Below, piece after piece: positions 35,143-64,000 of a DNA stretch of 64,000 bases. The DNA is taken from positions 928,001 to 992,000 of the forward strand of contig CBDAOY010000009.1 of the NCBI GenBank assembly GCA_965198225.1, given 5' to 3'. Source of the DNA: Terriglobia bacterium (GTDB lineage Bacteria > Acidobacteriota > Terriglobia > 20CM-2-55-15). The notes under the pieces are model-generated. The model searched no databases. It was given only the letters and a program-made list of their open reading frames with translations, and was not told the DNA's origin. Both the position numbers and the translations under genes were made by a program. Positions within the stretch are counted from its first letter, which is position 1, and each line of letters starts with the position of its first letter.

Positions 35143-35215
<73 letters not shown>

Positions 35216-48429: not shown

Positions 48430-49197
48430 TTAACGGATTCTGAAGACGATGTCGTCTCCCCCGACAGCGAAAGTCGGGCCGTCGGCGTTGGCGGAGGTCT
48501 CCAGCGCCCGGTTGGCGCCGGCCGCGATTACTATGACTGCGACTTCGGGCAGACCGCTCAGTCCGAGCTGTGCGAAATGCCCCACGTGAAGCTTGCGGAC
48601 GTTGATCAGGTACTTGTTGCCCCAGGGGTCCGTCAGTGGGAGAGCGATGATGTAAGGACCGGACCAGCCTCGCTGGGGGTCTCCCACAATCGTTCCGCGC
48701 CTCGGATATTCCTCGGTGCCGGTGAACGTGATGCCACCATCGGTGCTGGTTCTGGCAATCTGGTTGGCGACGAGATGCCCTTCGACCGTGTCGTCATCCG
48801 CGACCAGTTCGTGGCCGAATGACGAGGCCGCACTCGCGTAGGTCGCCGGGCTCGCCGGTATGTCCCAGGTGGACCCGACCGTCTGATCCGTCGGATAGGT
48901 CCCATTCTGGGAGGCCAGGTTGTTGAAGAAGGCGTCGTTCGGACCCGTGGCGTTGCCCGACCGGAACAACGGCCAATGAGAGGTGTCCTGGTAGTACGTG
49001 ATTACGCCCTGACCGATCGCCTGGACGTCGGCGAGGGCGGCCTGAACATTGGCGTTGTCGATGGCGCCGATCGCGCCACCGACGGCAACGCCTGCCAGCA
49101 CTGCACCGACGGCGACCGTCGCGGTCGCTTCGATCAGTGAGGTCGCGACGCCCCTGGTTCCACCCAGTAGTTTTTTAATTATTGTTAGCGCGTTCAT
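48430..49197 (-). CDS. GspG/type IV pilin-like protein with an atypical leader
   Basis: RGVATSLIE plus hydrophobic helix; WSGPY, DPWGNKY, GGDDIVFRIR. Confidence 0.85.
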   Translation of the reverse strand: MNALTIIKKLLGGTRGVATSLIEATATVAVGAVLAGVAVGGAIGAIDNANVQAALADVQAIGQGVITYYQDTSHWPLFRSGNATGPNDAFFNNLASQNGTYPTDQTVGSTWDIPASPATYASAASSFGHELVADDDTVEGHLVANQIARTSTDGGITFTGTEEYPRRGTIVGDPQRGWSGPYIIALPLTDPWGNKYLINVRKLHVGHFAQLGLSGLPEVAVIVIAAGANRALETSANADGPTFAVGGDDIVFRIR

Positions 49198-49238
49198 TGC
49201 TCAGCTCCTTCTCAAGTGTTCCGTTAGGCCCACTTAAA

Positions 49239-49254
49239 AGCACGCCGTGTGCCA
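49239..49254 (-). promoter_or_regulatory. Sigma54-type -24/-12 promoter
   Basis: The minus strand reads TGGCACACGGCGTGCT (GG-N10-GC), about 40 bp upstream of the pilin ATG, with AT-rich DNA further upstream. Confidence 0.72.
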
Positions 49255-49507
49255 TTGTCTAAGTAGCTGAAAACACTGATTTCTAACTTTATCGTGTCCA
49301 CAGATTCTGTAGACGGACCATCCTCGCGTCAACAACTTTGTGGTCTTTAATGCAGGAATTACAGTTTAAGAGTCGCTGCACCTGTTGCAGCCTGGCGCAG
49401 CTACTGCGCGTCGAGATGCATTAGATAAACCGTGCGGGGGGCGTGACGAAGGAGAGAACATCCTGTTGGTATTCGCAGTTGGGAGGAGGATCCTCAGGGA
49501 GGAGCTA

Positions 49508-49712
49508 TCACACTGAGGAACAAACGGTTCGACGCCCCGCTGTTCGGGTTGGTCACCGTGATCGCGAGGAGGCCGGGGGCGCTGATAATGAGGGCCGGCA
49601 CGGGCACCACGATCTGAGTAGGGGTGACCGAGGTCGGTGTGAGGGCTGCCGTGCCGAGCTGGACTGCGGCGCCAGTTTCAAAATTCGATCCGAAAATCGT
49701 CAGGTCGAACCG
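49508..49712 (-). pseudogene. 3' remnant of an IPT/TIG-domain gene
   Basis: Manual translation FDLTIFGSNFETGAAVQLG...TSVTPTQIVVPVP...ITVTNPNSGASN..LSV*; no start codon. Confidence 0.72.
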
Positions 49713-50017
49713 GGAGGACTCGGATCGTTACCGGGTCCGAGCTCGACGTCATATATGGCTGAACTCGTCGTGATCGACACACCGGAGACAAAAATCGGCC
49801 ACTTTCCCGTGTTCCTCCGGAAGTTCTGGACAGCCTTCGCGATCGTCTGAGTTTCTCGCGCCGCACGGGTCACCCGAGCGTCGTCGATCATGCCGGCGAC
49901 CATGGGAGTCAGGATTGCCGCCAGAATCCCCACTACGCCCAGGGCGACGACCATCTCCACCATCGTGAAGCCGCACTCGGAGCGCTCAGGGAACCGTGAA
50001 TGTGTTTGAAGAACCAT
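49700..50017 (-). pseudogene. 5' half of a small GspG-like pilin (paralog of 57024..57629), truncated
   Basis: G|FTMVE, ARVTRA, TGKWPIF; lacks the GPY/DPWG C-terminal half. Confidence 0.8.
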
Positions 50018-51161
50018 CGCTGAAGTCCACGGTCACGGTCACGCCGCTCAACGAGACGTTGCTTGCCGAGCCCGTGGCCGCGTCCTTGAAATTCTGGACC
50101 TTGATCGTCACCGTCTTCCCGACTCCCTTGATGGTGACGTCCGGGGCCACAGTTTGTTCCTGTTCGACCCGGATGGGAACGATCTGGGTCGGTTTGCCGC
50201 TGCCTTTGACCTGCTGGGCCGCGAAGGTTATGAGGTCCCCGCTGCCCTTACGGGTGCCGCCCCCGTAGTCGAACACGAAGTTTTTACCGAATTTGATCTT
50301 CTCGTAGTAGGCCTGCGGGGTGCTGGTGTAGGTCAGTCGGATCGATGTCACGTTGACCGCATTCGTGCCGAAGTTCGTTACCTTGAACTGGAGATCGTTG
50401 CCCCCCTTGATCTTGGCGGTGCCCTCCTCGTAGGTCAGCTTGGCGTCGATGCTGAGGCTTCGGAAGCCGAACGAAACGTCGTCGAAATCGAAATTGCCGC
50501 TGCCGTCGGTCACGTCGAACCGCTGAGTCACGGCGCCGTCTTCCGGGATGTTCAGTGTCACGGTCGCAAACTTCAGGACCTTCTTTTTCCTCTTGGCCAC
50601 CCCGGTGACTTGAGAGAAGACCTCATCCTTGAGGATATCGACGATCAGGTCGTCGCTGTTGCCCTTTATACCGTCGGGTCCAACGCTCTGGAGTCGGGCG
50701 GCCACTTCCGCGTTGTCTCCGCTCCGGTTGAACGTTGTCGAAGTGTAGACGTAGGCGTTTCCGAACGGATCCTTGTCGAACCCGATCAACCTTTCGACGG
50801 TGGTTTTCGGCACGTAGGGCCCCACCCATCCGGCGCCGACCAGGGTGTTTGTGTCGAAACTGAAGAGCGGGAAGGAGCCTTTCAACCAGAGTTTGGAGAG
50901 CTGGTCCGGGACGTCGCCGACCGTCCCTATGAACCCGAAGTCGGCCCGTCCCTCCGTGATGATCAGGTTGGGATTGCCGGTGATAGCGGTCTTGATCGAC
51001 TCCAGGTCGGATCGGGCTCTCATCGTCCCTTGAGAGACGAAGACCTGGTCGGCAATCGGAGCCGAAATGCCCAGAAGTATGGCCATCATCGCAATCAGTA
51101 CGATGGCTCCGAAGAGTCCCATGCCTCGAATGGTTGCTCGATCTTCCGTGATGGTGGTCAT
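49986..51161 (-). CDS. Large pilin-like protein, cassette position 4 (no E5; GspK/PilX-like leader)
   Basis: RG|MGLFG helix; WVGPY, DPFGN, SVGPDG; carboxypeptidase-like domain; C-terminal FSDGS. Paralog of 57626..58792. Confidence 0.85.
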   Translation of the reverse strand: MTTITEDRATIRGMGLFGAIVLIAMMAILLGISAPIADQVFVSQGTMRARSDLESIKTAITGNPNLIITEGRADFGFIGTVGDVPDQLSKLWLKGSFPLFSFDTNTLVGAGWVGPYVPKTTVERLIGFDKDPFGNAYVYTSTTFNRSGDNAEVAARLQSVGPDGIKGNSDDLIVDILKDEVFSQVTGVAKRKKKVLKFATVTLNIPEDGAVTQRFDVTDGSGNFDFDDVSFGFRSLSIDAKLTYEEGTAKIKGGNDLQFKVTNFGTNAVNVTSIRLTYTSTPQAYYEKIKFGKNFVFDYGGGTRKGSGDLITFAAQQVKGSGKPTQIVPIRVEQEQTVAPDVTIKGVGKTVTIKVQNFKDAATGSASNVSLSGVTVTVDFSDGSSNTFTVP

Positions 51162-52366
51162 GGTTCGGTCTTTGCCGTAAAGAAAGTTACGGAGCCGTCG
51201 CTGAAATCCACGCGGAACGTCACCCCGGTCATGTCCACCGCGGCTCCGTTGCCGGTCTGGACATCGTCAAAATTCTCCAGCTCGATCTTGAGAGTGCCGC
51301 CGCTGCCCACGGTGCTGATCCGGATGTCGGGGATCTGAAAAAACTGTGAAGAAACCAGCGCGTGCAGGGGTTCCTGCGTCACGCCGGTCCCGGCGATGAC
51401 CTCGTTGGAGAAGGTTACCGAATCACCGGACCCTTTCCTGGGACTGTTCGAATTGTAGACCGTTGTCCCGTTCAACCGGACCCTTCTGTAGAAGCCCGGT
51501 GGATCCGAAGTGTAGGTGAGCGTAAACGAGGAGATCGTCGTGGCGTCTTTGCCGAGGTTCTCCACGACGAACTCGACGTCGTCTGCATTGTTGCTCGTGG
51601 CGAAGCCTGTATCGTCCTTGTAAGCAAGAAGCGGCATGACCTCAAAAATCCGGTCTCCATGCGGGACATCCAGGAACTCGAAGAAACCACTCGTGTCGGT
51701 CGCTGTCGTACTGGTAGCCACGGCGCCCGCCGAGGGATAGGACAGCTTGACATCGACTCCGGCCAGGATGTTGCCGTTGCGGCGCACGTACCCGAATACC
51801 CGGGAAAAGGCCTCGCCCTTGTGGATCTCGATCAGGCCGTCATCGGACGTGCCCACGGTGCCGTCGGGACCGGGGACCTTGATCGTGGCGACGATCGGGG
51901 CTCCTGTGAACGCGCTCGTTCCCGCGGTCGTGTCCAATACGACAGCGTTGCCCCACGGGTCTTCGAGCAGATCCATCGGAGCGGTGATCAGGTAGGGACC
52001 GCGCCAGCCGTGACCGAGTTGCGTGATCGATTCGACCACATAATCCGGCAGCGCCCCCACCTCCGCCAGTTGGGTGAGCGAGGAGGGCAGGTTCCCCATG
52101 TCGCCGACAAACCCGAATCGGGTGACGTTGTCCTGCCCGCGCTGGATCTCTCTGGGAGTACCCACGACCGCTCTCTTGAGGCGGACGAGTTGATCGACGA
52201 CCGCCCTGTCGCGGGCGTTGTCGATCGCTGCCGGGACACCGATACTGAAGGTCAGGGCCAGCAGGACCATGATGGCCATGACGAGTGACACTTCGAACAG
52301 CGTCATGCCACGGCAGCTGTCGGCCTGTCGTCGTTCGGCCGCCATACTGTTGCCCGTCACGTTCAT
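51158..52366 (-). CDS. Large pilin-like protein, cassette position 3
   Basis: RG|MTLFE; FGFVGDMG; WRGPY; DPWGN; C-terminal DMTGVTFRVDFSDGS. Paralog of 58789..59982. Confidence 0.87.
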   Translation of the reverse strand: MNVTGNSMAAERRQADSCRGMTLFEVSLVMAIMVLLALTFSIGVPAAIDNARDRAVVDQLVRLKRAVVGTPREIQRGQDNVTRFGFVGDMGNLPSSLTQLAEVGALPDYVVESITQLGHGWRGPYLITAPMDLLEDPWGNAVVLDTTAGTSAFTGAPIVATIKVPGPDGTVGTSDDGLIEIHKGEAFSRVFGYVRRNGNILAGVDVKLSYPSAGAVATSTTATDTSGFFEFLDVPHGDRIFEVMPLLAYKDDTGFATSNNADDVEFVVENLGKDATTISSFTLTYTSDPPGFYRRVRLNGTTVYNSNSPRKGSGDSVTFSNEVIAGTGVTQEPLHALVSSQFFQIPDIRISTVGSGGTLKIELENFDDVQTGNGAAVDMTGVTFRVDFSDGSVTFFTAKTEP

Positions 52367-52370
52367 CGCC

Positions 52371-53572
52371 TTACGGCTCCACCGGTACGACGACGATCAT
52401 CGAGCCGTCGCTGAAAGTGATTTCGAAGATCACGCCGGACATGTCGACGGCGGTCCCCCCGCCTGTCTGCGTGTCGACGAAATTCTGCATCTGGATCTTC
52501 ATGGAGCTTCCTTTTCCGATCTTGCCGATCTGGATGTCCGCCACGTCCGTTATCGGCGATTGAAGTCGGATCGGGAGCGACTCTTCGACCGTGCCGCGCC
52601 CCTTCGCCGTTTTTCCGGAGAAATTCACCGTGTCTCCGGTGCCGAGTCGCGGGTTGCTGGAGTTGTACACCGTCGAACCGTCCACCCGCAGCCGGTTGAA
52701 GTAGGCGGGCGGATCGATCGAATAGTCGAAAGTCATGGAAGTGATCGTGATGTCTTCGGATGCGAAATTCTTGACGAAAAACTCGACGTCGTCGTTGTTC
52801 CCGCCCTTGACCACGGCCGTTCCGGCAGCCAGTACGAGTCGGGGCTCCACCGTCAGCGAGCGGTTTCCGAACGGAATGTCCGCGAAGAAGTAGTAACCCA
52901 GCGAATCGGTCGTGGCGGTCGAGGAAGTCAGAACACCGTTCTGGGCGTAGTTGAGGGTGATATCCATGCCCGGCACCACGTTGCCCTTGTTGTCGCGCAC
53001 GAAACCCTGAACCCTGGAGACGACTTCGGAGTTGAAGAAATTGACGGTGATGTCGTCGCCGTTGCCGAGAGAAAAATCCGGTCCCAGCGATGCCAGCTTT
53101 CCCTTCGCCCCGGCGCCGAACGTGGCATCAGTGAACGGGCTGTTGCTGTAGGAGAGTCCGTTGCCCCAGCCGTCCTTCATCAGGGCCGCCAGCGCCTCGA
53201 TCGTCTCGAGGGTCACATACGGGCCGTTCCAACCCGCGCCGGTCTTCTTCGTGGTGTCGAATGTGAACGCCGGCTGCGTGTCCTTGATCCAGAGGTCGGT
53301 CAGCGTCGCCGGCAGGTTGCCCATGTCGCCGACGTAGCCGAACGCCGTCCGGGTTTCATCGACCACGATCACCGGATCGCCCGACACGGCGCGCTGCAGG
53401 TCGGCCAGCCGATCTACGGTGATGTCGTGCTGAAGCATGTCGAGTGCGTTGCTGGCGACGCAAGGATCGACACGATCGCGAGCGTGGCCACGGCCTCGAC
53501 CAGGCTGAAGCCGGTTTCAATCCGTGCCTCCGTCGGCGAGGTCGACGCCAGCGTCTGGGAGGTCGATCTCAT
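52371..53572 (-). pseudogene. Large pilin-like protein, cassette position 2, frameshifted in the N-terminal helix near 53460
   Basis: ATG at 53572 gives ..ETG|FSLVEAVATLAIVSIL; the body (VASNALDMLQHD..., ORF 52371..53438) is in another frame. Confidence 0.82.
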
Positions 53573-54828
53573 TTCCGCTCCGGAGTGAATATGGCGACGG
53601 AACCGTCCGAAAACGTAACCTCGAACGAGATCCCGGTCATGTCGACGTCGGTGCCCGAGCCGGACTCGACGTCCTTGAAGTTCTGCAGCTTGATGCGCTT
53701 CGTTGCACCGGCCTGCGCGGACTGTCCAATGTTCTGGTCGAGCGCCAGGGTGAAGCCGGACTGGACCCGAACCGGGGATATCAGCCCGCTGTCGGAACCG
53801 GTCCCTTTGATCGTCTTGCTGGAGCTGAAGACGATGGTCTCGCCGCTCGCGGCTCTGTCCGAAGAGTCGTTGAAGACGGTCGAGTTGCCGACCTTGATTT
53901 TTTCGTAGAAAGCCGTCACATCGAATTCGGCCTTCAGGCTCGTGATGATGATGTCGTTGGCCGAGAAATTCTGGATGACGAACTCGACGTCGTTGTTCGA
54001 CCCACCCTTTGTGAAGCCGGTGTCGGCGACGTAGACCAGCGCGGGCTCGACTACCAGGCTGCGGTTGCCGAAAGGAACGTCGGTGAACGTGTACGCGCCG
54101 GACGCATTCGTGGTCGTGCTCGAGACTGCCGGGCTTCCGCCGGAAGGCTTGTTGATTTTGGCGGTCACGCCGGTCAGGGGATTCCCGCTGGCGTCCCGGA
54201 TGTATCCGACCACGGTCGCGAACAGGTCGGTCTCGTAGATTTCGACCGTGAGGTCGTCCCCTCCGCCCAAATCCGCATCCGGTCCGTAGCTGATCAGCCG
54301 GGCCCGGTACGTCTGTCCGGTCGATGAACTGACCCCGGTCTGGACCTCGTATACGATCGAGTTGCCCCATCCGTCGCGTGCGATGTCGGCGAATTGGTCC
54401 GTGGCGGGAACGCCGAAGTACGGACCGGCCCAGCCCGAACCCAACCTCAAGCTGGTGTCGAAGGTGAACAACGGCTGGGCGTTTCGAACCCAGAGCTCTT
54501 CCAGCGAGGTGGGCAGGGAGCCCATGGCCCCGATGAAGCCGAAATCGGTGCGGGATTCCTTCGTGACGATCCGTGGGTTTCCGATGATCGCGTGACGCAG
54601 TGCAGCAAGTCTGCGGCCGGTTTCGCGCTCGCGTTCGGCCTCCACCGGTTGGGAGAGTAGTGTAACCGTGCCGACAGCCACGAGCATCAGGATCCCCAGG
54701 CTGACGGAGACTTCCATCAGCGAGATCCCGCGATCACGTTGCGGACAGAGCGTTCCCAATGCCTCCTCCTTGAGGTTGGTGCCCCGACGATCTTTCCCGC
54801 CGTCGGTACGACCAGTCACGCCGATCAT
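53569..54828 (-). CDS. Large pilin-like protein, cassette position 1 (start uncertain)
   Basis: RG|ISLME; FGFIGAMG; WAGPY; DGWGN; SYGPD; C-terminal FSDGS. Confidence 0.85.
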   Translation of the reverse strand: MIGVTGRTDGGKDRRGTNLKEEALGTLCPQRDRGISLMEVSVSLGILMLVAVGTVTLLSQPVEAERERETGRRLAALRHAIIGNPRIVTKESRTDFGFIGAMGSLPTSLEELWVRNAQPLFTFDTSLRLGSGWAGPYFGVPATDQFADIARDGWGNSIVYEVQTGVSSSTGQTYRARLISYGPDADLGGGDDLTVEIYETDLFATVVGYIRDASGNPLTGVTAKINKPSGGSPAVSSTTTNASGAYTFTDVPFGNRSLVVEPALVYVADTGFTKGGSNNDVEFVIQNFSANDIIITSLKAEFDVTAFYEKIKVGNSTVFNDSSDRAASGETIVFSSSKTIKGTGSDSGLISPVRVQSGFTLALDQNIGQSAQAGATKRIKLQNFKDVESGSGTDVDMTGISFEVTFSDGSVAIFTPERK

Positions 54829-54905
54829 TCGGCGTCATTAGGTTTAAGGATCGGCAACGGACGTCCGAAACTGCAACCAAAAGCGACGAGCCGGCAAACC
54901 AGACA
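54812..54905 (-). promoter_or_regulatory. Conserved 5' leader/promoter element, copy 1
   Basis: Aligns with 56848-56940; contains the hairpin ACGCCGA-ATGA-TCGGCGT. Confidence 0.6.
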
Positions 54906-54980
54906 TCTGGTCAAGACGCTCGGGCGCGCTGGCTTCTCCGGACCCCGGTTTCTCCCTGGGAGCCGTTAGAGGAAATGCAT

Positions 54981-55259
54981 CTACTTGATTCGATAGATGA
55001 TGTCGTCGCCAGCCGGAGCGACAGCGGCTGTCTTGGAAATGTTGAAGCTTGTGTCGACCGTTGAGTCGGGTCCCGCCGAGAGGACGAAGCACGCATCGGC
55101 GCTCCCGCGCTTTGCGTTGATGATATTGACGAGATAACGGTTGCCCCATGGATCCGATCCGGGGTCCATGTATGGGCCGTTCCACTTGAACGGTCTGGCG
55201 GATGCCGTGGTCGTCGGATAGGAGGGAGCGTTTGTCAGAAGCTGCGGATAAGCGGTATA
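54981..55259 (-). pseudogene. 3' half of a small GspG-like pilin, interrupted by a group II intron
   Basis: QLLTNAPSY..WNGPY..DPWGNRY..LSAGPD..GDDIIYRIK; the upstream sequence is intron RNA. Confidence 0.85.
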
Positions 55260-56577
55260 TCGCGCCAAGCAAAGCTTGGGAAAGGGGAATTTGATGTGAG
55301 TCGATGAAACCTTTCGAAAGGAATCCAACTGGTGAAAATCCAGTCCGGCTAAAGCCGTAGCGGGCAGGCCGGTAGCGAGTCTTGCCTGTCGCCGGGTGAT
55401 CGGCGGGAGAGAAGCGTAGACAGCGAGGAAGTGGCGCAGCGAGGCTAGCTGCTGTGCTAGCGGGTGCAAGTCCCGCCGGCGCAATTTCCAGTATGGCGCC
55501 GTAGTTATATCCGGCAGTTATTGGGGTGACCCAATGGCTGGAAGCCCGGAAGTAAAAGCTCTAGACGGGGGAGAGGCGACACCGTATCTGTCCGGATCAG
55601 CACAGGGAGCAAGCAACCCGGAGGGCCGTAGCGAGAGCGAACGAACAAGACGCCGAAATGGCTGTCCCCGCATGAAGCTGATTTGCGGGAACGTTGGAGA
55701 TGCCAAGTGGTTCCCACTTTTTCATGATGGCCAGTGTCGGTATGGAAGAACTGGAGTGAGCACATACCGAATCTCCCGGCGTAGGCTGAAGGCGGCAATC
55801 CTGGAGAGTACAGTAGCGAAAGCCCGGAAGGTCTGGTGACCAGGCAGGAGGGTCCTTGAATGCCAAAGACTATCGCTATAACCGGCACTGCCGGGAAATG
55901 GGATGGAGGCCACCAGACTGGCGGATGGGGTCGCCAAGCGAGGATGGTTGGGACAACATAACCCAACTGGAGCGAGGACCCCAGGGCCCAGGTGAGGTCG
56001 ACCGCGGTCAATGGTCCCACACTCTGAAGTGGAGAATCCAGTTGACCGGGACGGCCCCTAAGGGCGGAGCAAACTGATTCGGCGAACGGTGTATTGTCGG
56101 GACCGGACTTTAGCCGCGAGCGGAGCCAGGAAGGCTTCGTGCCGAACTTACAGGTGCCTGGCGCTTGAAGCCGTACTGGGGAAAACCCGACGTACGGAAT
56201 TTCAGGGAGGGCGGCTGGAAACGTGAGCCATGGCAGAATTAGGAACCCGCTCCACGTATCGAAAGAGTGGAAGTCGGAAACTCTCATGCCTACAGTTGCG
56301 CGCGCCAGTGCTCTACCCGACGGCCGCGAGGATTCAGCTCCGAAATTTATTACGTTGCGGATGCCGAGGCTTTTATATCGGTCGAAGGCCGCATCCGGAC
56401 AGCCGTCATGCGAGGTTGTCGGGAGCCGCCGGAGTCTCTAGCCCGGGGCACGCTTCCACAGGGATTCTCCAGGAACTTGGGAAAGCCTCGCAATCTCCTC
56501 TCGAAGAGGTAGTCGGCGGTCGAGGGCAACCAGAGACTGCGGGCGACGGGTTGAGAGGAATCTTATGAGCCCATAGT
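55260..56577 (+). mobile_element. Outer group II intron, 3'-truncated (domains I-III only), split by a nested intron
   Basis: Domain I-like motifs CTGGTGAAAATCCAG, GAAGCGTAGACAG, TGCCGA..GAAGGC; GGAACTTGGGA at the domain II boundary; TGAGCCCATAGT in domain III. The 5' boundary is approximate. Confidence 0.7.
55434..56321 (+). ncRNA. Complete ORF-less group II intron nested in the outer intron
   Basis: Domain V GAAGCCGTACTGGGGAAAACCCGACGTACGGAATTTC (56167-56203); extended domain VI ending CTCTACCCGAC; no RT ORF. The 5' end lies between 55431 and 55434. Confidence 0.88.
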
Positions 56578-56648
56578 GTGTGCTGAGCAGCGCACCGCTC
56601 AGGAGGGTTGAAGTCCCTCCGGTGATCGGATGAGGGTCACCGTATCGC
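56578..56648 (+). mobile_element. 5' fragment of a third group II intron
   Basis: GTGTG start, CTGAGC..GCTCAG hairpin, then GGAGGGTTGAAGTCCCTCCGGTGA..TCACCGTA; same layout as the 5' end of the nested intron. Confidence 0.62.
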
Positions 56649-56801
56649 TCCAGGTCCGCCTTGGCTGTTTCCGGCTTTCGCCTTCATCAACGACGATGCG
56701 AGCGGGACGAGAAAACCCGCCATGATGCTGACGATGAACAGTGAGGCGACCACTTCCGGCAGAGTGAAGCCGCGGCTTCGGCAACGACCGGAGAGACTCA
56801 T
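56649..56801 (-). pseudogene. 5' fragment of a pilin-like gene
   Basis: MSLSGRCRSRG|FTLPEVVASLFIVSIMAGFLVP, then a frameshift and truncation. Confidence 0.8.
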
Positions 56802-56847
56802 GCGCGTTCTGCGTGGACGATCATTCACCGTCGTCGGTCTCCAAGCC

Positions 56848-56940
56848 GGTCACGCCGATCATTCAGCGTCATGGGTTTAGGATCTGAGAAGGGCGTCGGG
56901 GACTTCAACCTGAAAAGCGTCGAACCGACAAAAACACACA
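56848..56940 (-). promoter_or_regulatory. Conserved 5' leader/promoter element, copy 2
   Basis: Aligns with 54812-54905; hairpin ACGCTGA-ATGA-TCGGCGT. Confidence 0.6.
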
Positions 56941-57023
56941 TCGACCTAAGAATATGGCCTGTTTTTGTTTAGGGGAGAGTCTGACTCTGGGGCGGGGAGG
57001 GGGTTCAACAGCCCTGGGAGAGC

Positions 57024-57629
57024 TTATTTCACTCGCCCGACGATATCGTCGCCGCCGATCGTCACCGCGCCGGCGCCGGATCCGATGTTCTGGTCGAACG
57101 TGGTTTCGATCTGCCCGTTAGGTCCGGCCGAGATGACCATTCCGGCCTTCTGGACCCCGAAGCGGAGGTTCTCGGCGCTGACCAGGTAGGCGTTGCCCCA
57201 GGGATCGTCGCCGAGCTCCTGAACGTAGGGGCCGCGCCACGCAAACCGGCCGGCCGTGCCGTATCCGGGGACGTTGCGGCCGAGAATGTCTTCAAGATCT
57301 CCTCGCTCGTTGAGGGCCGGCAACCATTCGCTGTCGGTAGCCGAGGGAAGGGTTCCCGGGCCGAGCAGGATCTCGTAGTAATCGGAAGATGTGGTGATGC
57401 CGACGCCCGACTTGAAGATCGGCCACTTGCCTGTCGCCTTGTTGAAGTTCCGGATGGCCTGGCCGATGTTCACGACCTCCAGCTCGGCCCGTGTGACGCG
57501 GGCTTCTTCCACCAGTCGGCTCACCATTGGCGTGAGAATCGTGACGAGTATCACCAGGACCGCCAGAACCACAACCACTTCCAGGAGAGTGAACCCGAAT
57601 TCTTGCCTGCCGACGAATCTCATGATCAT
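57024..57629 (-). CDS. Small GspG-like pilin, cassette position 5
   Basis: G|FTLLE; WRGPY; DPWGNAY; ISAGPNG; GGDDIVGRVK. Confidence 0.9.
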   Translation of the reverse strand: MIMRFVGRQEFGFTLLEVVVVLAVLVILVTILTPMVSRLVEEARVTRAELEVVNIGQAIRNFNKATGKWPIFKSGVGITTSSDYYEILLGPGTLPSATDSEWLPALNERGDLEDILGRNVPGYGTAGRFAWRGPYVQELGDDPWGNAYLVSAENLRFGVQKAGMVISAGPNGQIETTFDQNIGSGAGAVTIGGDDIVGRVK

Positions 57630-58792
57630 GGCACCGAAAACGTGTTGACCGAGCCGTCGCTGAAGCCGATCGTAAACGTGACGCCGCTGACCGAGACGCC
57701 GCTCGCGGATCCCGTCGCTGCATCTTTGAAGTCTCGAATCTCGACGACGACGGACTTGCCGACTCCTCGAATCTCGACGTCCGGCGCTGCCGTGACCTCC
57801 TGTTCCACGCGGATCGGGATGACCTGCGTCGGCTTGCCCGTTCCGGCGACCGCCACCGCGGAGAAATTAATCGTCTCGCCGGTGCCCGGCCGGACACTGC
57901 TGTTGTCGGTGACGTAGTCGAAGACCTGCGTGTTTCCGATCTTGACTTCCTCGTAGTAGGACGCCGGCGAAGACGTGTATGTCGCCGTCATCGACGTGAC
58001 GTTGACCGCGTCGGACCCGAAGTTGGCCACCGTAAACTTGAGTCGGGTGCCCTGCAGCTTGGCGGTGCCGTTCTCATAGGTCAGCCGCGGATCGATGGCC
58101 AGGCTGCGAAACCCGAACGAGACATCGGTGAACGTGAAGTCGCCGCTGGCGTCGGTGACCGCGACGCGCTGGTCCACTGCGCCGTCAACCGGTACGTTGA
58201 GGGAGACGGAAGCAAAGGGAACAGTCTGATTGTTCCGCTTCAACGTCCCGTTGACGGTCGAGAAGATTTCTCCCTTGAGAAGGTCGATGGACAGGTCGTC
58301 GTCGGTTCCGCTCGTCCCGTCGGCGCCGAGGCTCGTGATTCGGGCTGCGACAAGGGCGTTATCCGAGGCACGGTTGAACTCGGTTGACGTGTACACAAGC
58401 GGATTTCCGAAGGGATCCAGGTCCAGCGTCAGGAGATCCTCGACGAACGTGTCGGGCGCGTAGGGGCCCACCCACCCGGCACCGACCAGGTCGGTCGTGT
58501 CGAAGACGTAGCCCGCCTGAGCCCCCTTGATCCACAGTTTGTCGAGCGTGACTGGTACGCCTCCCATTGTGCCGATGTAACCGAAATCGGCCCGGCCGCC
58601 TTCAATCACCAGGTTCGGATTACCGGCCATGGCTGTCTTGAGCGCTTCCAGATCCTCGCGAGCCTGCAGCGTTCTCGAAGCATTCGCAACCTGGTTCGCC
58701 ACCGGGACCGAAGCGACGATTAACGCGGTGGTCATCGCCATGAGGACGACGGCCCACAGGATTCCCATTCCCCTGTTTCGCTCCTGATTCAT
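57626..58792 (-). CDS. Large pilin-like protein, cassette position 4
   Basis: RG|MGILW (no E5); WVGPY; DPFGN; C-terminal FSDGS. Confidence 0.87.
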   Translation of the reverse strand: MNQERNRGMGILWAVVLMAMTTALIVASVPVANQVANASRTLQAREDLEALKTAMAGNPNLVIEGGRADFGYIGTMGGVPVTLDKLWIKGAQAGYVFDTTDLVGAGWVGPYAPDTFVEDLLTLDLDPFGNPLVYTSTEFNRASDNALVAARITSLGADGTSGTDDDLSIDLLKGEIFSTVNGTLKRNNQTVPFASVSLNVPVDGAVDQRVAVTDASGDFTFTDVSFGFRSLAIDPRLTYENGTAKLQGTRLKFTVANFGSDAVNVTSMTATYTSSPASYYEEVKIGNTQVFDYVTDNSSVRPGTGETINFSAVAVAGTGKPTQVIPIRVEQEVTAAPDVEIRGVGKSVVVEIRDFKDAATGSASGVSVSGVTFTIGFSDGSVNTFSVP

Positions 58793-59982
58793 GGCATCTG
58801 CCTCGTCGTGAAGAGTGTTGTCGAGCCGTCGCTGAAAACGATCTCGAAGGTCACGCCCGTCATGTCCACGTCGGCTGCTCCACCGCCGGTTGGAGCATCG
58901 GCGAATTCACTCAGTTCGATGTTGAGGGTACCGCCCGTTCCGATCGCGTTGATGCTGATTTCAGGCACCTGGAATGCCAGCGACGAGACCACAAGATGCT
59001 GAGGCTCCTGGATGACGTTGGTCCCGGCGACCAGTTCGGCGGGAAACGTGATGACATCGCCCGAGCCGGCCCTTGGGCTCGTCGAGTTGAACACGAGTGA
59101 GTCGTTGATCCGGACCTGCTCATAGTAAGCCGGCGGACTCGAAGAGTATGTCAACGTGAACGAAGTGACCGTCGTGGAGTCTTTGCCTAGATTCTCGATC
59201 ACGAACTCGACATCGCTGAACTGGACAGTCGTCGTGAATGCCGTGTCCTGCTGGTAGCTGAGCTTGGGATTGACCTCGATCACCCGTTCCCCGTGAGGAA
59301 TGAGACCGAACGAGTAGAAACCATCCGCATCGGTTGCCGTCGTGGTGGTGATGATGCTGCCGGCGTCCGGGTACGATATGACGACGTCGACCCCGGGTAT
59401 GGTGTTCCCGCCGGGGTCGCGGATGTATCCGAACAGGTCTGATTTCGCCTCTCCTTTGTAGATCTCGACGCTCTCGTCGTCCGCGGTGTCGGCGACGCCG
59501 TCACCTCCCAGAGAACGGATCGTCGCGACCACGGTCGAACCCGTGGATGCACTCGTCTTTTGAGTTGTGTCCAACTCCAACGGATTGCCCCAGGGGTCTT
59601 CAAGGAAATCCAGCGGATCGGTGGCGATGTAGGGACCGCGCCAGCCCGACCCGAGTTCGATGATGGACGTGACTTCGTAGGCGGGCTGAGCTCCGATGTC
59701 GATCAGATTTCCGAGAGCGGCCGGAAAGCTTCCCATGTCGCCGACGTAGCCGAAGCGACTGATGTTCCCCTCGCCCAGGCGTATAACGGAAGGCTCACCG
59801 ATCAGCGCTCGCTTGACGCGCATGACCTGTTCCCGGGTCTGCTCCGAGCGGTTTTGCTCCATGGTCAGAGGGACCATGAAGCCGAAGCTGTATGCCAGCA
59901 ATGCCAGAACCGACAGCGCAAGCGTCACCTCCGGAAGGCTGGTGCCCCGGTTGCCTCCGGACGGCTTCGTCGGTTTCCTCAT
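58789..59982 (-). CDS. Large pilin-like protein, cassette position 3
   Basis: RG|TSLPE; FGYVGDMG; WRGPY; DPWGN; DMTGVTFEIVFSDGS. Confidence 0.87.
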   Translation of the reverse strand: MRKPTKPSGGNRGTSLPEVTLALSVLALLAYSFGFMVPLTMEQNRSEQTREQVMRVKRALIGEPSVIRLGEGNISRFGYVGDMGSFPAALGNLIDIGAQPAYEVTSIIELGSGWRGPYIATDPLDFLEDPWGNPLELDTTQKTSASTGSTVVATIRSLGGDGVADTADDESVEIYKGEAKSDLFGYIRDPGGNTIPGVDVVISYPDAGSIITTTTATDADGFYSFGLIPHGERVIEVNPKLSYQQDTAFTTTVQFSDVEFVIENLGKDSTTVTSFTLTYSSSPPAYYEQVRINDSLVFNSTSPRAGSGDVITFPAELVAGTNVIQEPQHLVVSSLAFQVPEISINAIGTGGTLNIELSEFADAPTGGGAADVDMTGVTFEIVFSDGSTTLFTTRQMP

Positions 59983-60345
59983 GGCGTGGGATCCGTCGGC
60001 GTCGCGACGACCACCGACCCGTCACTGAACGTGAGCTCGAAGATCACGCCGGTCATGTCAACCGCGTTGCCGTTGCCGGTTGCCGTGTCTTCGAAGTTCT
60101 GCATCTCGATCGTCAACGAGCTGCCCCGGCCGATGTCGCCGATCACGATATCGTTGACGTCGGTAATCGACGACTGGATGCGGATCGGGAGCGATTCGGC
60201 GACCGCGCCGGTGCCGTCGATGGTTTCGGCCGCAAAGTTTGATGTGTCTCCGGTCGCAAACCGCGGGTTGCTGGAGTTGAAGACCGTCGTGTTGCCGATC
60301 CGGAGCCTTTCGAAGTAGGCCGGCGGCTGGATGTCGAAATCGATG
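59979..60345 (-). pseudogene. 3' remnant of a large pilin-like gene, cassette position 2
   Basis: IDFDIQPPAYFERLRI..SSNPR..DMTGVIFELTFSDGS matches the C-terminal part of 52371..53572. Confidence 0.82.
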
Positions 60346-61795
60346 GTCACCGGCGACACCGTCAACCAGACTTCCCGCATGGCCGGTGTCGGCAAACCGG
60401 ATCAGATCATCATCTCCCGTTCCATGATCGACGTTCTCAGCGAGAACGACAAGTTCATCTGTCGGTTTGTCGGGAAGGCTGATTTTCACGGCAAGACGGG
60501 CACCGTGGAGCTGTTCGAAATCCTCACCGAGAAGCCGGAACTCAAGGAGAAGCAGAAATCAAGGATTGTCTCCGAAAGCGTTCTCGCGGCAGAGGCGGAG
60601 ACGCCAAAGGGTCGGTTGATCGGCGATAAGTACTTCATCGAGAAGCTGATCGGTGAGGGCGCTTACGGTAAGGTTTTCAAGGCCCGCCATGCCGAGTCCA
60701 AGGACATCGTCGCGATCAAGATGCTTCCCGAAGACGCTTACTCGTTCTACAGCCGAGAGGCGCAAGTATTGCGCCAGTTGCAACCTTGCCCCTACATCAT
60801 GAGCATCATCGATGCGTTCGTCGACCAGGAGGGCCTCTGTATCGTCATGCCCTACATCGAGCACGGCAGCCTGCAGACCTACATGAACAAGCTGCACGGC
60901 GATCCACTCGAACCGGGACAGACGATTTCGCTCATGGAAGAGCTCCTGCTCGGCATCTCCCACGCCCATTCGCGGGACGTCATCCACCGGGACGTGAAAC
61001 CCCAGAACATCCTGCTGGGGAACGGAACAGATGGGATCCTGACCGATTTTGGTGTGGCCTATGCCATGGAATCCACCGGGCGAACGACGACGATGACAGC
61101 GGGAACTTCCGGGTATATCGCTCCCGAGGTCACCTCGGGAAGGTTCGACAGCTCGATCGACGTTTACTCCGCCGGCGTCGTCCTCTACAAGATGCTCGGC
61201 GGTGAGTTCCCGGTCGATATGCAGACCCTGCCTCCCTACACCCATCCGGATTTCGTCAAGATCATCGGCCGGTCCATCGCCGATCGCTCCAGGCGCTATT
61301 CGAAACCCGAAGATATGCTGGAGGATCTTCGCTCCATGGGCTCGAAGGTGCTCGGCTCGACGATTCAGTTCCATCGCGCAGTCCGGCGAAGAGCGGGTGC
61401 TGGTGGCCAGTGGGGACTCCAGCTGGGCCGTCCTGGAACCGGCACTGGCCGAGCGCAAGCTGAGCACCATGCGCTGCGGCCTCGACGACCTGCTCAAGCA
61501 GATACACTGGCACATTCCCGCCGTAACGGTTCTCGACTTCACGCTGCTCGCCATGTCGATGTCCAGCGTTCCCGACCAGGTTCACGCGTGCAGTGCGCTC
61601 GGCACGAAGGTCGTCGTCATCAACTGTGGGTCCATCGACGAGGCTTGGGGAATGCTCAAGGCCGGGGCCTCGGATTGTACGCCGTCGCTCGAGGCTCCGC
61701 AGGCGATCGAGGCGTTGACAATGTCCGTTGATACGCTCATCACACAGATACAGCTGGGTGGCGGAAAGTCCTGGTGGAAAAGGATTATCAGCTAG
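60346..61795 (+). pseudogene. 5'-truncated adenylate/guanylate cyclase - Ser/Thr kinase - receiver-like multidomain gene, frameshifted near 61370
   Basis: GDTVNQTSR cyclase motif; kinase motifs GEGAYG, VAIK, HRDVKPQN, DFG, APE; REC-like tail in ORF 61202..61795. Confidence 0.8.
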
Positions 61796-61901
61796 CCTTG
61801 CCATAGCGAACCCCAACAGCCAGGTGCGTCTGAAGCGAGTTGCGTCGGACGGTCGTCCGATCGTGGAAGTCCCGGGGAAGGGAGGATCGAGGGCGGAAAG
61901 A

Positions 61902-61932
61902 GCCGGCCTCGATCCGACGATCGACGGCCGGC
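61902..61932 (-). terminator. Hairpin downstream of pilin 61945..62529
   Basis: GCCGGCC-TCGATC..GATCGA-C-GGCCGGC with a short T tract. Confidence 0.55.
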
Positions 61933-61944
61933 CCATTCTGAAGT

Positions 61945-62529
61945 TTACTGGATTCGAGTCACGATGTCGTCGCCGCCAACCGTGACAGACGCGCTTGTTG
62001 CCTGGGTGCGGTCTGTTTCCAGCGTGCTGTTCGGTCCAGCCGATATGACGTAGGCGTGATCCGACCGAGTGTTCTTGAGCGCGTGTGCAGTCACGAGGTA
62101 CGCATTGTTCCAGGGGTCGGACGCGATGTTCATATAAGGGCCCCGGTAGGCGACCCGGCCACCGCGCGCGCTTGTCGGGAGGGAGAGCTTGTTCGTATTC
62201 AGATATTCGTCCAGTCCGATCGTCGTCAGCGCGGAAAGGGTCCAGTCCACCCCTCCGGCATCGGCGACAAGGGTTCCGTCTCCAAACAGCACGTCACCCG
62301 CTGCGGTGTCCGCATTGGCGTTGGCGATGTTGGAAAAGATCGGAAACCTGGCCGTATCTCGTTTGTAGGCCAGAAGCGACGTCCTTATCGCGCGAGCATC
62401 CGCCGCGGCTCGCGTGACCCGCGCCTGGTCGATGTAGCCGACCACGAGCGGGGTCATGATAGCTGCAAGGATCGCGATCACCCCCAATACGACCGCCAGT
62501 TCGATGAGTGTAAAGCCCTTGGATTTCAT
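61945..62529 (-). CDS. Major-type GspG/type IV pilin-like protein
   Basis: MKSKG|FTLIELAVVLG; YRGPY; DPWNN; GGDDIVTRIQ. Confidence 0.9.
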   Translation of the reverse strand: MKSKGFTLIELAVVLGVIAILAAIMTPLVVGYIDQARVTRAAADARAIRTSLLAYKRDTARFPIFSNIANANADTAAGDVLFGDGTLVADAGGVDWTLSALTTIGLDEYLNTNKLSLPTSARGGRVAYRGPYMNIASDPWNNAYLVTAHALKNTRSDHAYVISAGPNSTLETDRTQATSASVTVGGDDIVTRIQ

Positions 62530-62624
62530 TGATTCATCCTCGTCCGGGTTCGTCGCGTTCCACACACTCGGAGAAAACGGTAGTTCCGGTCGCGACACCG
62601 TGTCGCGACCGGAACACCAGCCGC

Positions 62625-63206
62625 TTAATTGATCCGGACGACGATGTCGTCGTTAGCCACGGTGACCGTCGTCGTGGTCTGATCCCGAGTCGTGTCCAGG
62701 GTGCCATCCGCGCCGGCCGAGATGACGTAGGTGATGTTCGTGTCACTGTCAACGTTCGACGCGTTGACCAGAAACGCATTGCCCCACGGATCGTCGCCAA
62801 CGGTGTCCAGGTAAGGACCGCGGTATGCAATCCGGCCTCCACGGAAATTACCACTCGTGTTCAGACTGAGTTTGTTGGTGTTGATGAATTCAATGATGCT
62901 GGCAGACGCGCTCGTCGTCGTCGTCCAGCCGTTGCCCGTCGACGGGATATTAAGGGAGCTCCTGAAATCGACCTCGTCTTCAGTGCCGGCCCGCGCAAGG
63001 GTGAGGGTTTCGTAGACCGGATAAAAGCTCGTATCCCGCTTGTGCAACTGGTATGCCGTTGCGATAGCCCTGGCGTCGGTGGCGGCCCGGGTTACCCGCG
63101 CCTGGTCGATGTAGCTGGTCACCAGGGGTGTGAGCATCGCGGCCAGGACCGCTATTACGGCCAGAGTGACCGCCATTTCGATAAGAGTGAAACCTTTGGC
63201 TTTCAT
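62625..63206 (-). CDS. Major-type GspG/type IV pilin-like protein
   Basis: MKAKG|FTLIEMAVTLA; YRGPY; DPWGN; NDDIVVRIN. Confidence 0.9.
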   Translation of the reverse strand: MKAKGFTLIEMAVTLAVIAVLAAMLTPLVTSYIDQARVTRAATDARAIATAYQLHKRDTSFYPVYETLTLARAGTEDEVDFRSSLNIPSTGNGWTTTTSASASIIEFINTNKLSLNTSGNFRGGRIAYRGPYLDTVGDDPWGNAFLVNASNVDSDTNITYVISAGADGTLDTTRDQTTTTVTVANDDIVVRIN

Positions 63207-63271
63207 TGTCGTTCTCCCTTTACTTGTGAGTTGTAAATCTGTTCGTGAAATCATGTCCGATAGCTCGTAAA

Positions 63272-63955
63272 TTATTGAATCCTATATATGATATCGTCGC
63301 CGACGGCAGAGAACGAATCGTTCAACTGGTCGAAGCGTGTCTCGATCGTCCGGTTCGCTCCGGCCGAGAGTACTACGACCGCGACCCGGCCGCCTGTGGG
63401 TATTCCCAGGCTCTGCCGGACCAGATCGACACCCTGAGGAGTGAGAAACTGGACGTTGACCAGGTAGCGGTCTCCCCAGGGATCCTTGGACAGATTGCTC
63501 AGGTACGGCCCGTTCCAGCCCTTCTGCCGGTTGAACGAAATCTCTCCGACACGACGGTAACTCGGTCCGTTCTCGTCGGGTTCGTTCTCGATCAGGTGGT
63601 TCTCAAGCAAGTCGATTTCGTCGTCATCGGTCGGCCAGGAATTCGTATTGTCCGCGGCATCGTCGCCGTCTGATTCCAGGACGTGGAAAATGTCGTCGTT
63701 CTTGGAGGTTGCGAGTCCCGATTTGTAAGCGGGCGGGAATCCGGTGTCCTGCATGAAGTTGAGAGCGGCCCCGGCGATCAATTCCAGATCGGCAACAGCC
63801 CGGGCCCGTCTCGCGTCCTCCATGTTTCCGAGAAGTCTACCTGCGCCGGCGCTGGCGATAATGGCCACCACGGCGATGACCACCACAGTCTCCACCAGTG
63901 AGGTGGCAGTGCCGCGATTGTCATGGAATGTGTTTCGTAACTTCATCGGTTTCAT
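63272..63955 (-). CDS. GspG/type IV pilin-like protein with an atypical leader
   Basis: RGTATSLVE; WNGPY; DPWGDRY; GDDIIYRIQ. Paralog of 48430..49197. Confidence 0.87.
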   Translation of the reverse strand: MKPMKLRNTFHDNRGTATSLVETVVVIAVVAIIASAGAGRLLGNMEDARRARAVADLELIAGAALNFMQDTGFPPAYKSGLATSKNDDIFHVLESDGDDAADNTNSWPTDDDEIDLLENHLIENEPDENGPSYRRVGEISFNRQKGWNGPYLSNLSKDPWGDRYLVNVQFLTPQGVDLVRQSLGIPTGGRVAVVVLSAGANRTIETRFDQLNDSFSAVGDDIIYRIQ

Positions 63956-64000
63956 GCCTCGCCGCCTTTGAAGCAATTGGTGTACCAACTTTAACGTGTT

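Follow-up and report, generated by a model that had tools for sequence, protein, structure and literature searches.

A fixed-order cassette of four modular GspG-like pilins in an MSH-like type IV filament locus of Terriglobia

What kind of filament would be assembled from an array of GspG-like pilins in which four large proteins, each extended by additional domains, follow one another in fixed order? The question is raised by a 64,000-nucleotide stretch of a Terriglobia genome of the Solibacteraceae family (C9:928001-992000, C9 being contig CBDAOY010000009.1 of assembly GCA_965198225.1, source genome G000), referred to here as the window; coordinates are window positions unless C9 or a locus number is given. 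The pilin array under study occupies 48430-63988 on the minus strand. Its large genes encode pilins with GspG-type heads and two appended β-domains, and the four paralogs, termed p1-p4 by position, form an ancient, ordered cassette, of which the window holds one copy and part of a second (c1p2 denotes position 2 of cassette 1). Together with genes just outside the window the array belongs to a single-locus, complete type IV filament system resembling the mannose-sensitive hemagglutinin (MSH) pilus, with its own prepilin peptidase and with c-di-GMP and sigma-54 control elements. With moderate confidence we favor the reading that the large proteins are modular minor pilins that would prime and cap this filament, their β-domains serving as adhesive tip modules.

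A scan of 185,579 species genomes gave ten related loci, seven from Terriglobia metagenome-assembled genomes (MAGs; L001-L007, including Solibacteraceae and Ca. Sulfopaludibacter) and three from Ca. Brocadiales MAGs (L008 and L009 among them). L002 and L003 are the two cassette loci of G001, a close relative from the same genus. An earlier reading of the window made from its letters (the original prediction) described about 15 GspG-like pilins; the array is real, but the listing of open reading frames (ORFs) resolves it into 14 pilin genes or fragments, ten apparently intact and four damaged. Six are full-size large pilins of 355-419 amino acids, with one 3' fragment as a seventh. The intact small pilins, named by their window start (S_48430, S_57024, S_61945, S_62625 and S_63272), have 201-255 amino acids, and all five end in DDI(V/I)xR(I/V)x, in agreement with the predicted DDIxxRI/VK terminus. 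Three damaged small pilins were tallied, those itemized being a stump at 49700-50017 and a remnant at 54981-55244. The features of the array are as follows, a slash in a leader following its Gly.

48430-49197, minus strand: S_48430, small pilin of 255 amino acids, final gene of the locus; leader RGVATSLIE; T2SSG 27.9 bits.
49509-49709, minus strand: remnant, last ~67 residues of a ~1030-amino acid CarboxypepD_reg+TIG protein (tblastn 54% identity over 67 amino acids).
49700-50017, minus strand: trailing small pilin of cassette 1, 105-amino acid N-terminal half, C-terminal half deleted; 57% identical to S_57024.
49986-51161, minus strand: cassette 1 p4, large pilin of 391 amino acids; leader G/MGLFG, lacking Glu5.
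51158-52366, minus strand: cassette 1 p3, large pilin of 402 amino acids; leader G/MTLFE.
52371-53572, minus strand: cassette 1 p2 (c1p2), large pilin; leader G/FSLVE in one frame, remaining 355 amino acids in another.
53569-54828, minus strand: cassette 1 p1, large pilin, ORF of 419 amino acids; leader G/ISLME at residue 34, the true start probably lying downstream of 54828; PF13620 35.5 bits.
54981-55244, minus strand: leading small pilin of cassette 1, 3' remnant of 87 amino acids, N-terminal 126 amino acids absent; 79% identical to residues 127-213 of the L002 ortholog.
55327-56444, plus strand: group II intron-like debris without a reverse transcriptase; RF02005 matches at 55335-55474 and 56278-56444.
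56670-56804, minus strand: N-terminal remnant (45 amino acids) of a 466-amino acid pilin-like gene that follows cassette 2 in G001 (tblastn 87% over 45 amino acids).
57024-57629, minus strand: S_57024, trailing small pilin of cassette 2, 201 amino acids; T2SSG 30.7 bits, N_methyl 24.9 bits.
57626-58792, minus strand: cassette 2 p4, large pilin of 388 amino acids; leader G/MGILW, lacking Glu5.
58789-59982, minus strand: cassette 2 p3, large pilin of 397 amino acids.
59979-60362 (or to 60395), minus strand: cassette 2 p2, 3' fragment (C-terminal domain); 63% identical to c1p2 and 75% to L003 p2.
60331-61795, plus strand: adenylate/guanylate cyclase and Ser/Thr kinase gene (Pfam), facing the pilins; first ~124 codons absent, 1-nucleotide frameshift near 61367.
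61945-62598, minus strand: S_61945, small pilin with the canonical leader KGFTLIE.
62625-63254, minus strand: S_62625, small pilin, 50% identical to S_61945.
63272-63988, minus strand: S_63272, small pilin, first pilin gene after the sigma-54 regulator; leader RGTATSLVE; likely start ATG at 63955.

The features of a class III signal peptide are present in the array proteins, with a short charged leader ending in Gly, about 20 hydrophobic residues and Glu at +5 (the N_methyl matches are to PF07963/TIGR02532). Such leaders had been predicted for nearly every gene and are read directly from the translations, except that a 16-nucleotide deletion near 53455-53462 puts the c1p2 leader out of frame. 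Glu5 is missing from p4 in both cassettes, as predicted, and also from 12 of the 13 p4 orthologs that have an N terminus, while the other positions keep it; GspK likewise lacks Glu5. The second exception is a leader of the form RG(V/T/M)ATS(L/M)(I/V)E in S_63272, S_48430 and their orthologs in L001, L003, L004 and L007, in which counting from Gly puts Glu at +7, and cleavage behind the Ala would put it at +5.

Pfam assigns T2SSG (E ≤ 0.01) to 7 of the 14 genes and fragments and N_methyl to 6. PF08334 is exceeded (cut-off 21 bits) only by small pilins, six in number, and PF13620 (cut-off 32.3 bits) by two of the six full-size large pilins, c1p1 and c1p2 (35.5 and 37.1 bits), with weaker matches of 31.7, 17.4 and 17.0 bits in three others. 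No NCBIfam model is passed by any array pilin tested, and no curated family in Pfam or NCBIfam describes the large pilins. Assignment as GspG equivalogs was rejected, the TIGR01710 scores of 16-63 bits (best 63.1) lying below the cut-off of 88.85 bits in 11 of 11 proteins, so that the fold is GspG-like without equivalog identity. Models for GspI, GspJ and GspK (PF02501, PF11612 and PF03934) have no match in a scan of 15 window proteins, nor does a genome-wide scan place one in the locus.

The protein of 53569-54828 (p1) was modeled with AlphaFold2 (44-row alignment, predicted local distance difference test (pLDDT) 87.4) and comprises four parts, a long N-terminal helix, a GspG-like head, a transthyretin-like sandwich and an all-β C-terminal domain. 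In this predicted model the head (residues 60-196) superposes on EpsG (4lw9_A; Z 9.9, root mean square deviation (rmsd) 2.5 over 98 residues) and PulG (5wda_A; Z 8.3, rmsd 2.7 over 100 residues). From residue 202 the chain adopts a transthyretin/carboxypeptidase-D-like fold with Z of 10-11, the match to domain II of carboxypeptidase D (1qmu_A) having Z 10.5 and rmsd 1.9 over 78 residues. The motifs W-x-GPY...DPWG...S-x-G-x-DG...DDI occur in the array pilins, and all four large-pilin heads keep the complete S-x-G-x-D-G...DD loop, which we take to be the calcium site of GspG. Pfam (PF13620) and these fold matches bear out the carboxypeptidase regulatory-like and β-rich C-terminal domains proposed earlier, and with the adjacent machinery described below they uphold the wider claim of a type IV filament pilin array whose large genes are GspG-derived with appended β-domains. 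A modular pilin is one with an N-terminal pilin module and at least one domain not specific to pilus biology; the large pilins combine such a module with PF13620, the transthyretin-like fold and the β-sandwich. A Foldseek search of the Protein Data Bank with the whole p1 model was uninformative, the matches, all with TM scores of 0.1-0.2, being multi-domain proteins with Ig-like folds, Gram-positive sortase pilins among them. For the p1-p4 heads with p4 as partner, complex prediction reached 0.00 and 0.01, where the mark is 0.32; made without controls, it weighs neither way.

The C-terminal domain is rare and nearly confined to pilin-type proteins. Searched against 1.84 billion cluster representatives, a profile built from 34 C-domains recovers 206 of them at E ≤ 0.001 (142 at 1e-10 and 38 at 1e-30), mostly proteins of 370-440 amino acids with the match at the C-terminal end. 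Among 12 atypical, mostly longer matches, Pfam finds pilin-type N termini in nine, PF13620 only in one and nothing in two. The domain is present in 10 of 400 sampled genomes of the class, the source genome included, and all ten belong to the window's own family, of whose 33 other genomes 9 have it; these are distributed across 5 of 147 genera. Modeled alone it is a β-sandwich (pLDDT 84.7). No fold family could be assigned by a structure search with this model, where the best match has Z 7.1 and no chain reaches 8; modules of the CBM32/35/36 type score Z 5.2-6.0.

The cassettes are distinguished by the order of their members. Position-matched proteins of cassettes 1 and 2 are 60% (p4), 53% (p3), 63% (p2) and 57% (trailing small pilin) identical, compared with 31-43% between neighbors inside one cassette, which confirms the prediction that matched positions are closer than neighbors. 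Most junctions are ATGA overlaps (53569-53572, 51158-51161, 57626-57629, 58789-58792 and 59979-59982). In the window cassette 2 consists of the p2 fragment, p3, p4 and the trailing pilin, without the lead pilin, p1 and most of p2. The cassettes had been described as four large genes and one small gene; the fixed order and the overlaps stand, but relatives have a leading small pilin as well, and the small gene of cassette 1 is only a 105-amino acid stump, with a further small pilin surviving as the remnant at 54981-55244.

A word-indexed search with p1 gives 48 homologs at E ≤ 0.001, carried in their sources, where named at all, as 'hypothetical' or 'prepilin-type N-terminal cleavage/methylation domain'. 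Six of the seven Terriglobia loci preserve the order p1-p2-p3-p4; L001 has p1 only. The leading small pilin is found in L002, L003, L004 and L007, with an 86-amino acid fragment in L006, and the trailing one in L002, L003, L004, L006 and L007. Both cassettes are present in G001, where a distance of about 14 kb separates them (L003 and L002). In a maximum-likelihood tree of 36 large pilins every position forms its own clade with 100% support, and one of four Brocadiales paralogs is the sister of p4. Planctomycetota of the anammox order (L008 and L009) likewise have four large paralogs of this family, which suggests that the cassette was transferred between phyla. In L008 the four large paralogs are preceded by four pilin-like genes of 265-306 amino acids. 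The original prediction had said beforehand that a described family with this architecture, a genome lacking assembly machinery or a cassette order not conserved elsewhere would count against it; no described family was found, the machinery is present and the order is conserved in other genomes.

Synteny in the relatives extends over the secretin, the AAA protein, the TPR protein, the histidine kinase, the sigma-54 response regulator, the small pilins, the opposite-strand cyclase-kinase (601-611 amino acids in L001, L003, L004 and L007) and the cassette. After the cassette comes either an S_48430-like pilin or the ~1030-amino acid CarboxypepD_reg+TIG protein, the latter in L002 and L007. Homoserine dehydrogenase (46850-48157) marks the low-coordinate end of the locus, as it does in L001 and L004, where the S_48430 orthologs adjoin it.

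Several further observations concern the relatives. The ~14 kb between the G001 cassettes (L003:15705-21196 and L002:1-8900) encodes pilin-like proteins of 466 and 382 amino acids with the N-terminal GDP...FGYLGD motif of the large pilins, together with S8 peptidases, a 1164-amino acid protein (DUF7305, SBBP) and a DUF7948/SBBP protein. In three Terriglobia MAGs (L003:10001-11095, L006:10076-11151 and L007:9055-10477) the cassette 2-type ortholog of p1 is split into two frames, which could be recurrent sequencing error or recurrent inactivation. Transposases of the DDE and IS21 types lie in or beside the relatives' arrays (L003:455-1873, L003:4300-6644, L002:19402-21090 and L006:15851-17266). 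The ESM Atlas holds unnamed N_methyl/T2SSG clusters of about 400 amino acids from WOR-3, Fidelibacterota and Zixibacteria, which are leads only.

The original prediction noted that no ATPase, platform, secretin or peptidase gene lies in the window, which is correct but misleading, as the assembly machinery begins 3.5 kb outside the window, on the strand of the pilins. Past the window end lie genes for a sigma-54 response regulator, a PAS histidine kinase, a 200-amino acid A24 prepilin peptidase, a TPR protein and an ExeA/MshM-like AAA protein, and further on for a 507-amino acid secretin, a 206-amino acid protein without a family match, a PilO-like protein, a 507-amino acid PilM-like protein, a GspF-type platform, an MshEN ATPase and a GAF-GGDEF cyclase. 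The ATPase and platform are at C9:1002719-1005594, 10.7 kb past the window end. Annotation of 15 locus proteins with Pfam and NCBIfam gives MshEN 71.8 bits, T2SSF 177.8 bits and AAA_22 in the ExeA-like protein. The best NCBIfam model of the secretin is TIGR02519 (MshL) at 232.4 bits, below its cut-off of 250.2 bits, and those of the platform and of the C-terminal half of the ATPase are GspF (347 bits) and GspE (288 bits), both below their equivalog cut-offs. The Peptidase_A24 gene (48.3 bits) is placed between the TPR and histidine kinase genes and has an ortholog in G001.

An alternative assignment of this machinery is to a type II secretion system (T2SS)-like machine, in which the cassette would be the cargo-contacting tip of a periplasmic pseudopilus exporting neighbors such as subtilases. 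All the pilins are GspG-like, the platform and ATPase score best with GspF and GspE, and the cassettes of G001 and L005 have S8 peptidases nearby, as this assignment would have it, but it is improbable on several counts. Pfam detects no GspC-, GspL- or GspM-type protein among the 15 locus proteins, and PilM_2 and PilO are found instead; the ATPase is of the MshEN type, the secretin scores best with MshL, and the GspF, GspE and GspG equivalog scores are all below cut-off. The genome also encodes a separate canonical T2SS at C9:652-658 kb, with GspE, GspF and GspG, a T2SSK match and a weak T2SSI match. The lack of GspC/L/M matches and the presence of this second system argue that the locus is not a T2SS. 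Genome-wide, T2SSK and T2SSI signals occur only beside that T2SS (C9:655-657 kb) or on contig C6, and T2SSJ has no match.

Two classes of control element accompany the MSH-like system. The GAF-GGDEF cyclase (C9:1005789-1007066, or L011:14789-16066, L011 being the machinery stretch of C9) is directly upstream of the MshEN ATPase, and a cyclase adjoining a c-di-GMP-binding ATPase fits c-di-GMP control of assembly. Sigma-54-like GG-N10-GC elements are placed upstream of S_48430 (49240-49254, at -24/-12) and S_63272 (63973-63987) and also upstream of their orthologs. The positions of these individual sites are suggestive; the overall count is not.

In the model we favor, the small GspG-like pilins would build the fiber, and S_63272 and S_48430, with their sigma-54-like promoters, are the best candidates for the major subunit. 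Each cassette, made up of a lead small pilin, p1-p4 and a trailing small pilin, would through translational coupling yield a complex of fixed stoichiometry for priming and for the tip, comparable to GspH-I-J-K or FimU-PilV-W-X, with the Glu5-less p4 as the presumed distal cap. The large pilins would insert through the GspG-like module and display the transthyretin-like and β-sandwich domains outward, probably as an adhesin for polymers or surfaces, so that the cassette would probably act as an exchangeable sticky pilus tip and the two diverged cassettes may provide two alternative tips on one machine. The placement at the tip draws on analogy with the gspHIJK and fimU-pilVWX operons, on the tip exposure predicted for modular pilins in the available text of PMC8179133 and on the alternative minor-pilin sets described in that of PMC13759059. 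The further proposal, that in this lineage the universal priming complex of the GspH/I/J/K type has been replaced by four duplicates of the GspG fold, each with both display domains, as a swappable tip cassette moved between Acidobacteriota and anammox Planctomycetota, is more doubtful; it would amount to a separately evolved way of priming and capping filaments.

The same heads allow another arrangement, with the large pilins either built into the shaft or distributed over the length of the fiber, which would make a thick heteropolymeric filament covered by β-domains. All four keep the complete GspG-type head with its loop, three of the four keep Glu5, and large major pilins and heteropolymeric pili exist (PMC11046646 and PMC10628169, as far as the accessible portions of these papers go). 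That arrangement has little probability, however, as each position is a single copy in strict order with ATGA coupling, like minor-pilin operons, one member shows a conserved loss of Glu5, and at least five small pilin genes in the locus could form the shaft.

In the source genome the locus is partly decayed, which the original prediction missed. In addition to the c1p2 deletion, the trailing pilin of cassette 1 aligns with its L002 ortholog only over residues 8-108 of the latter, and the stump together with the adjacent last ~67 codons of the ~1030-amino acid gene points to a deletion of about 3 kb. Compared with G001, the ~14 kb of inter-cassette genes is deleted, and the 2.2-kb gap that remains contains two weak RF02005 matches without a reverse transcriptase and the 45-codon remnant. 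Comparison with orthologs outside the window reveals a 37-nucleotide deletion in the ATPase gene, a 4-nucleotide deletion in the response regulator gene and 1-nucleotide indels in the histidine kinase and ExeA-like genes. Eight other full-length T2SSE genes of the source genome are unbroken, so the breakage is not genome-wide.

These lesions were compared with Logan contigs from four runs of four studies (X1, X3, X4 and X7) over C9:976401-996400, the ATPase lesion lying outside that stretch. Over the c1p2 deletion and the truncation of the trailing pilin, contigs from X1, X3 and X4 show gap-free identity to the window; an X7 contig crosses the c1p2 deletion without gaps and with one other letter different, starting beyond the trailing-pilin truncation. 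X1 and X4 contigs span the 5'-truncation junction of the cassette 1 lead pilin. The agreement of independent contigs establishes that the c1p2 deletion and both small-pilin truncations are real, and long-read homopolymer error was rejected for them on the same ground. Interruption of a small pilin by intact group II introns was also rejected, there being no reverse transcriptase ORF and the N-terminal half of the pilin being absent, not displaced; the RF02005 matches at the array score 60-63 bits compared with 110-166 bits for the genome's full copies.

Several findings weigh against the account given so far. The array of G001 lies ~150 kb from its machinery, so that linkage between the two is not universal; upstream of its first pilin G001 has a transposase in place of the histidine kinase and response regulator genes, in keeping with relocation of the array. 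The sigma-54 consensus is not enriched, with 58 matches in the window against 51.6 expected and 11 against 12.4 in L011. What points to a tip location and to mutual binding of p1-p4 is confined to gene order, coupling and the Glu5 pattern, and the four heads, GspG-like and equal in size, include none with the GspI, GspJ or GspK folds of known tip complexes. 'Adhesin' is a guess, as no specific structural relative of the C-terminal domain was found. Damage extends to four pilin genes and to five genes of regulation or machinery (ATPase, ExeA-like protein, histidine kinase, response regulator and kinase); eroded in this way, the system of the source strain may be inactive, while close relatives keep it mostly intact. 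The truncation of cassette 2, whose 5' end had been predicted as lost and is indeed missing from the window, is itself contradicted by near-identical public contigs: at the junction (~60352) a 7824-nucleotide X1 contig matches both sides with 3324 extra bases between them, an X4 contig runs on for 2227 extra bases, and part of the insert resembles c1p2. Cassette 2 is thus complete in those samples, and its incompleteness in the window reflects strain variation or an assembly artifact. The response regulator deletion and the extra histidine kinase base are absent from X3 and X4 contigs, X1 having the window's response regulator and kinase alleles, so that some lesions may be strain-specific or assembly errors.

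From the same evidence the array of the source genome could be read as a decaying, non-functional relic that makes no filament, an explanation whose probability comes close to even without reaching it. The indels in the ATPase, response regulator, histidine kinase, ExeA-like, kinase and c1p2 genes fit such decay, as do the truncated small pilins, the lost neighbors and the intron debris, several of these lesions being confirmed in independent contigs while the other T2SSE genes are intact. Set against it are the absence of the two regulatory lesions from X3 and X4, the intact cassette 2 in X1 and X4, the chance that the assembly mixes strains or contains errors, and the ten pilin genes that are still open.

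Some observations touch the debris itself. The source genome is heavily colonized by group II introns, with 34 RVT_1 and 23 RF02005 matches. At 55434-56321 contigs show two joints, one skipping about 888 nucleotides (X1 and X7) and the other going back by a similar length (X1 and X3); the summed contig depth there is 100-900x compared with ~10x in the flanks, and a 238-nucleotide piece is 96% identical to C6:838140-838377. This suggests a short group II-like unit without a reverse transcriptase that is tandem, circular or very widespread. Elsewhere in the window a tRNA gene (35143-35215, minus strand, Rfam 73.6 bits) has no relation to the pilin array.

Returning to the modular minor-pilin reading, the locus can be compared with known systems. 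Like the modular pilins PilB and PilC of S. sanguinis and CofB, the large pilins consist of an N-terminal pilin module followed by grafted domains; in a difference with these, the array has four paralogs in a fixed-order cassette, with two extra domains each, the second unnamed and near-private, and it is known from genes alone. Raynaud et al. (2021; PMC8179133), in the text available, place PF13620 among the commonest modules grafted on pilins and predict that such pilins are tip-exposed. Like GspH-I-J-K and FimU-PilV-W-X, the cassette has four genes under translational coupling, forms an operon within a type IV filament locus and includes one member lacking Glu5, and its presumed role would likewise be priming and capping, whereas its members are close paralogs (31-43% identity) with GspG-type heads and ~400 amino acids and have no T2SSI, T2SSJ or T2SSK match. 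The available part of PMC13759059 describes alternative core minor-pilin sets of cyanobacteria that prime different filaments of one machine. The locus resembles that of the MSH pilus in being single and encoding an MshEN ATPase, a platform, a secretin closest to MshL, an ExeA/MshM-like AAA protein and a TPR (MshN-like) protein. MSH loci as characterized in the accessible sections of Denise et al. (2019; PMC6668835) come from Gammaproteobacteria, Epsilonproteobacteria and Chrysiogenetes and are without a prepilin peptidase; the present locus encodes one, has a secretin below the MshL cut-off and GspG-like pilins, and belongs to the phylum Acidobacteriota.

The head fold and the W-x-GPY to DDI motifs are those of GspG (EpsG and PulG), but the array proteins are 1.5-3 times longer, stay below the TIGR01710 cut-off and have no GspC/L/M found in their locus. 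By model names, the Verru_Chthon cassette proteins A-D (TIGR02596-TIGR02599) are likewise a fixed prepilin-type cassette in soil bacteria; they match only the N termini of two small pilins, weakly (15.7-24.3 bits; cut-offs 70 and 256.5), and none of the large pilins. The best reading is of a system most like an MSH or T4a pilus with what would be a modular minor-pilin tip. Novelty was overstated in the original prediction, as pilin plus PF13620 is among the 15 commonest modular-pilin architectures according to the available text of PMC8179133, and alternative minor-pilin sets are published in PMC13759059, to the extent that its text is available. What is new is the four-paralog fixed cassette, the private C-terminal domain and the distribution over Solibacteraceae and Brocadiales, and the absence of the classical core minor pilins from the locus is an apparent further novelty. 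A description of the cassette was not found in the literature searched; Supplementary Dataset S1 of PMC8179133 may list individual members.

For annotation, the finding bears on about 200 protein clusters now named only 'hypothetical' or 'prepilin-type N-terminal domain'. Minor-pilin tip complexes set the binding and assembly of filaments and are known nearly only from Proteobacteria, Firmicutes and cyanobacteria, and the locus represents an alternative, compact and conserved, in soil and sediment bacteria that are abundant and seldom cultured. If the cassette is the tip, a priming complex can be rebuilt from the major-pilin fold, and the cassette would offer a handle on the attachment of Solibacteraceae and anammox bacteria to particles or polymers.

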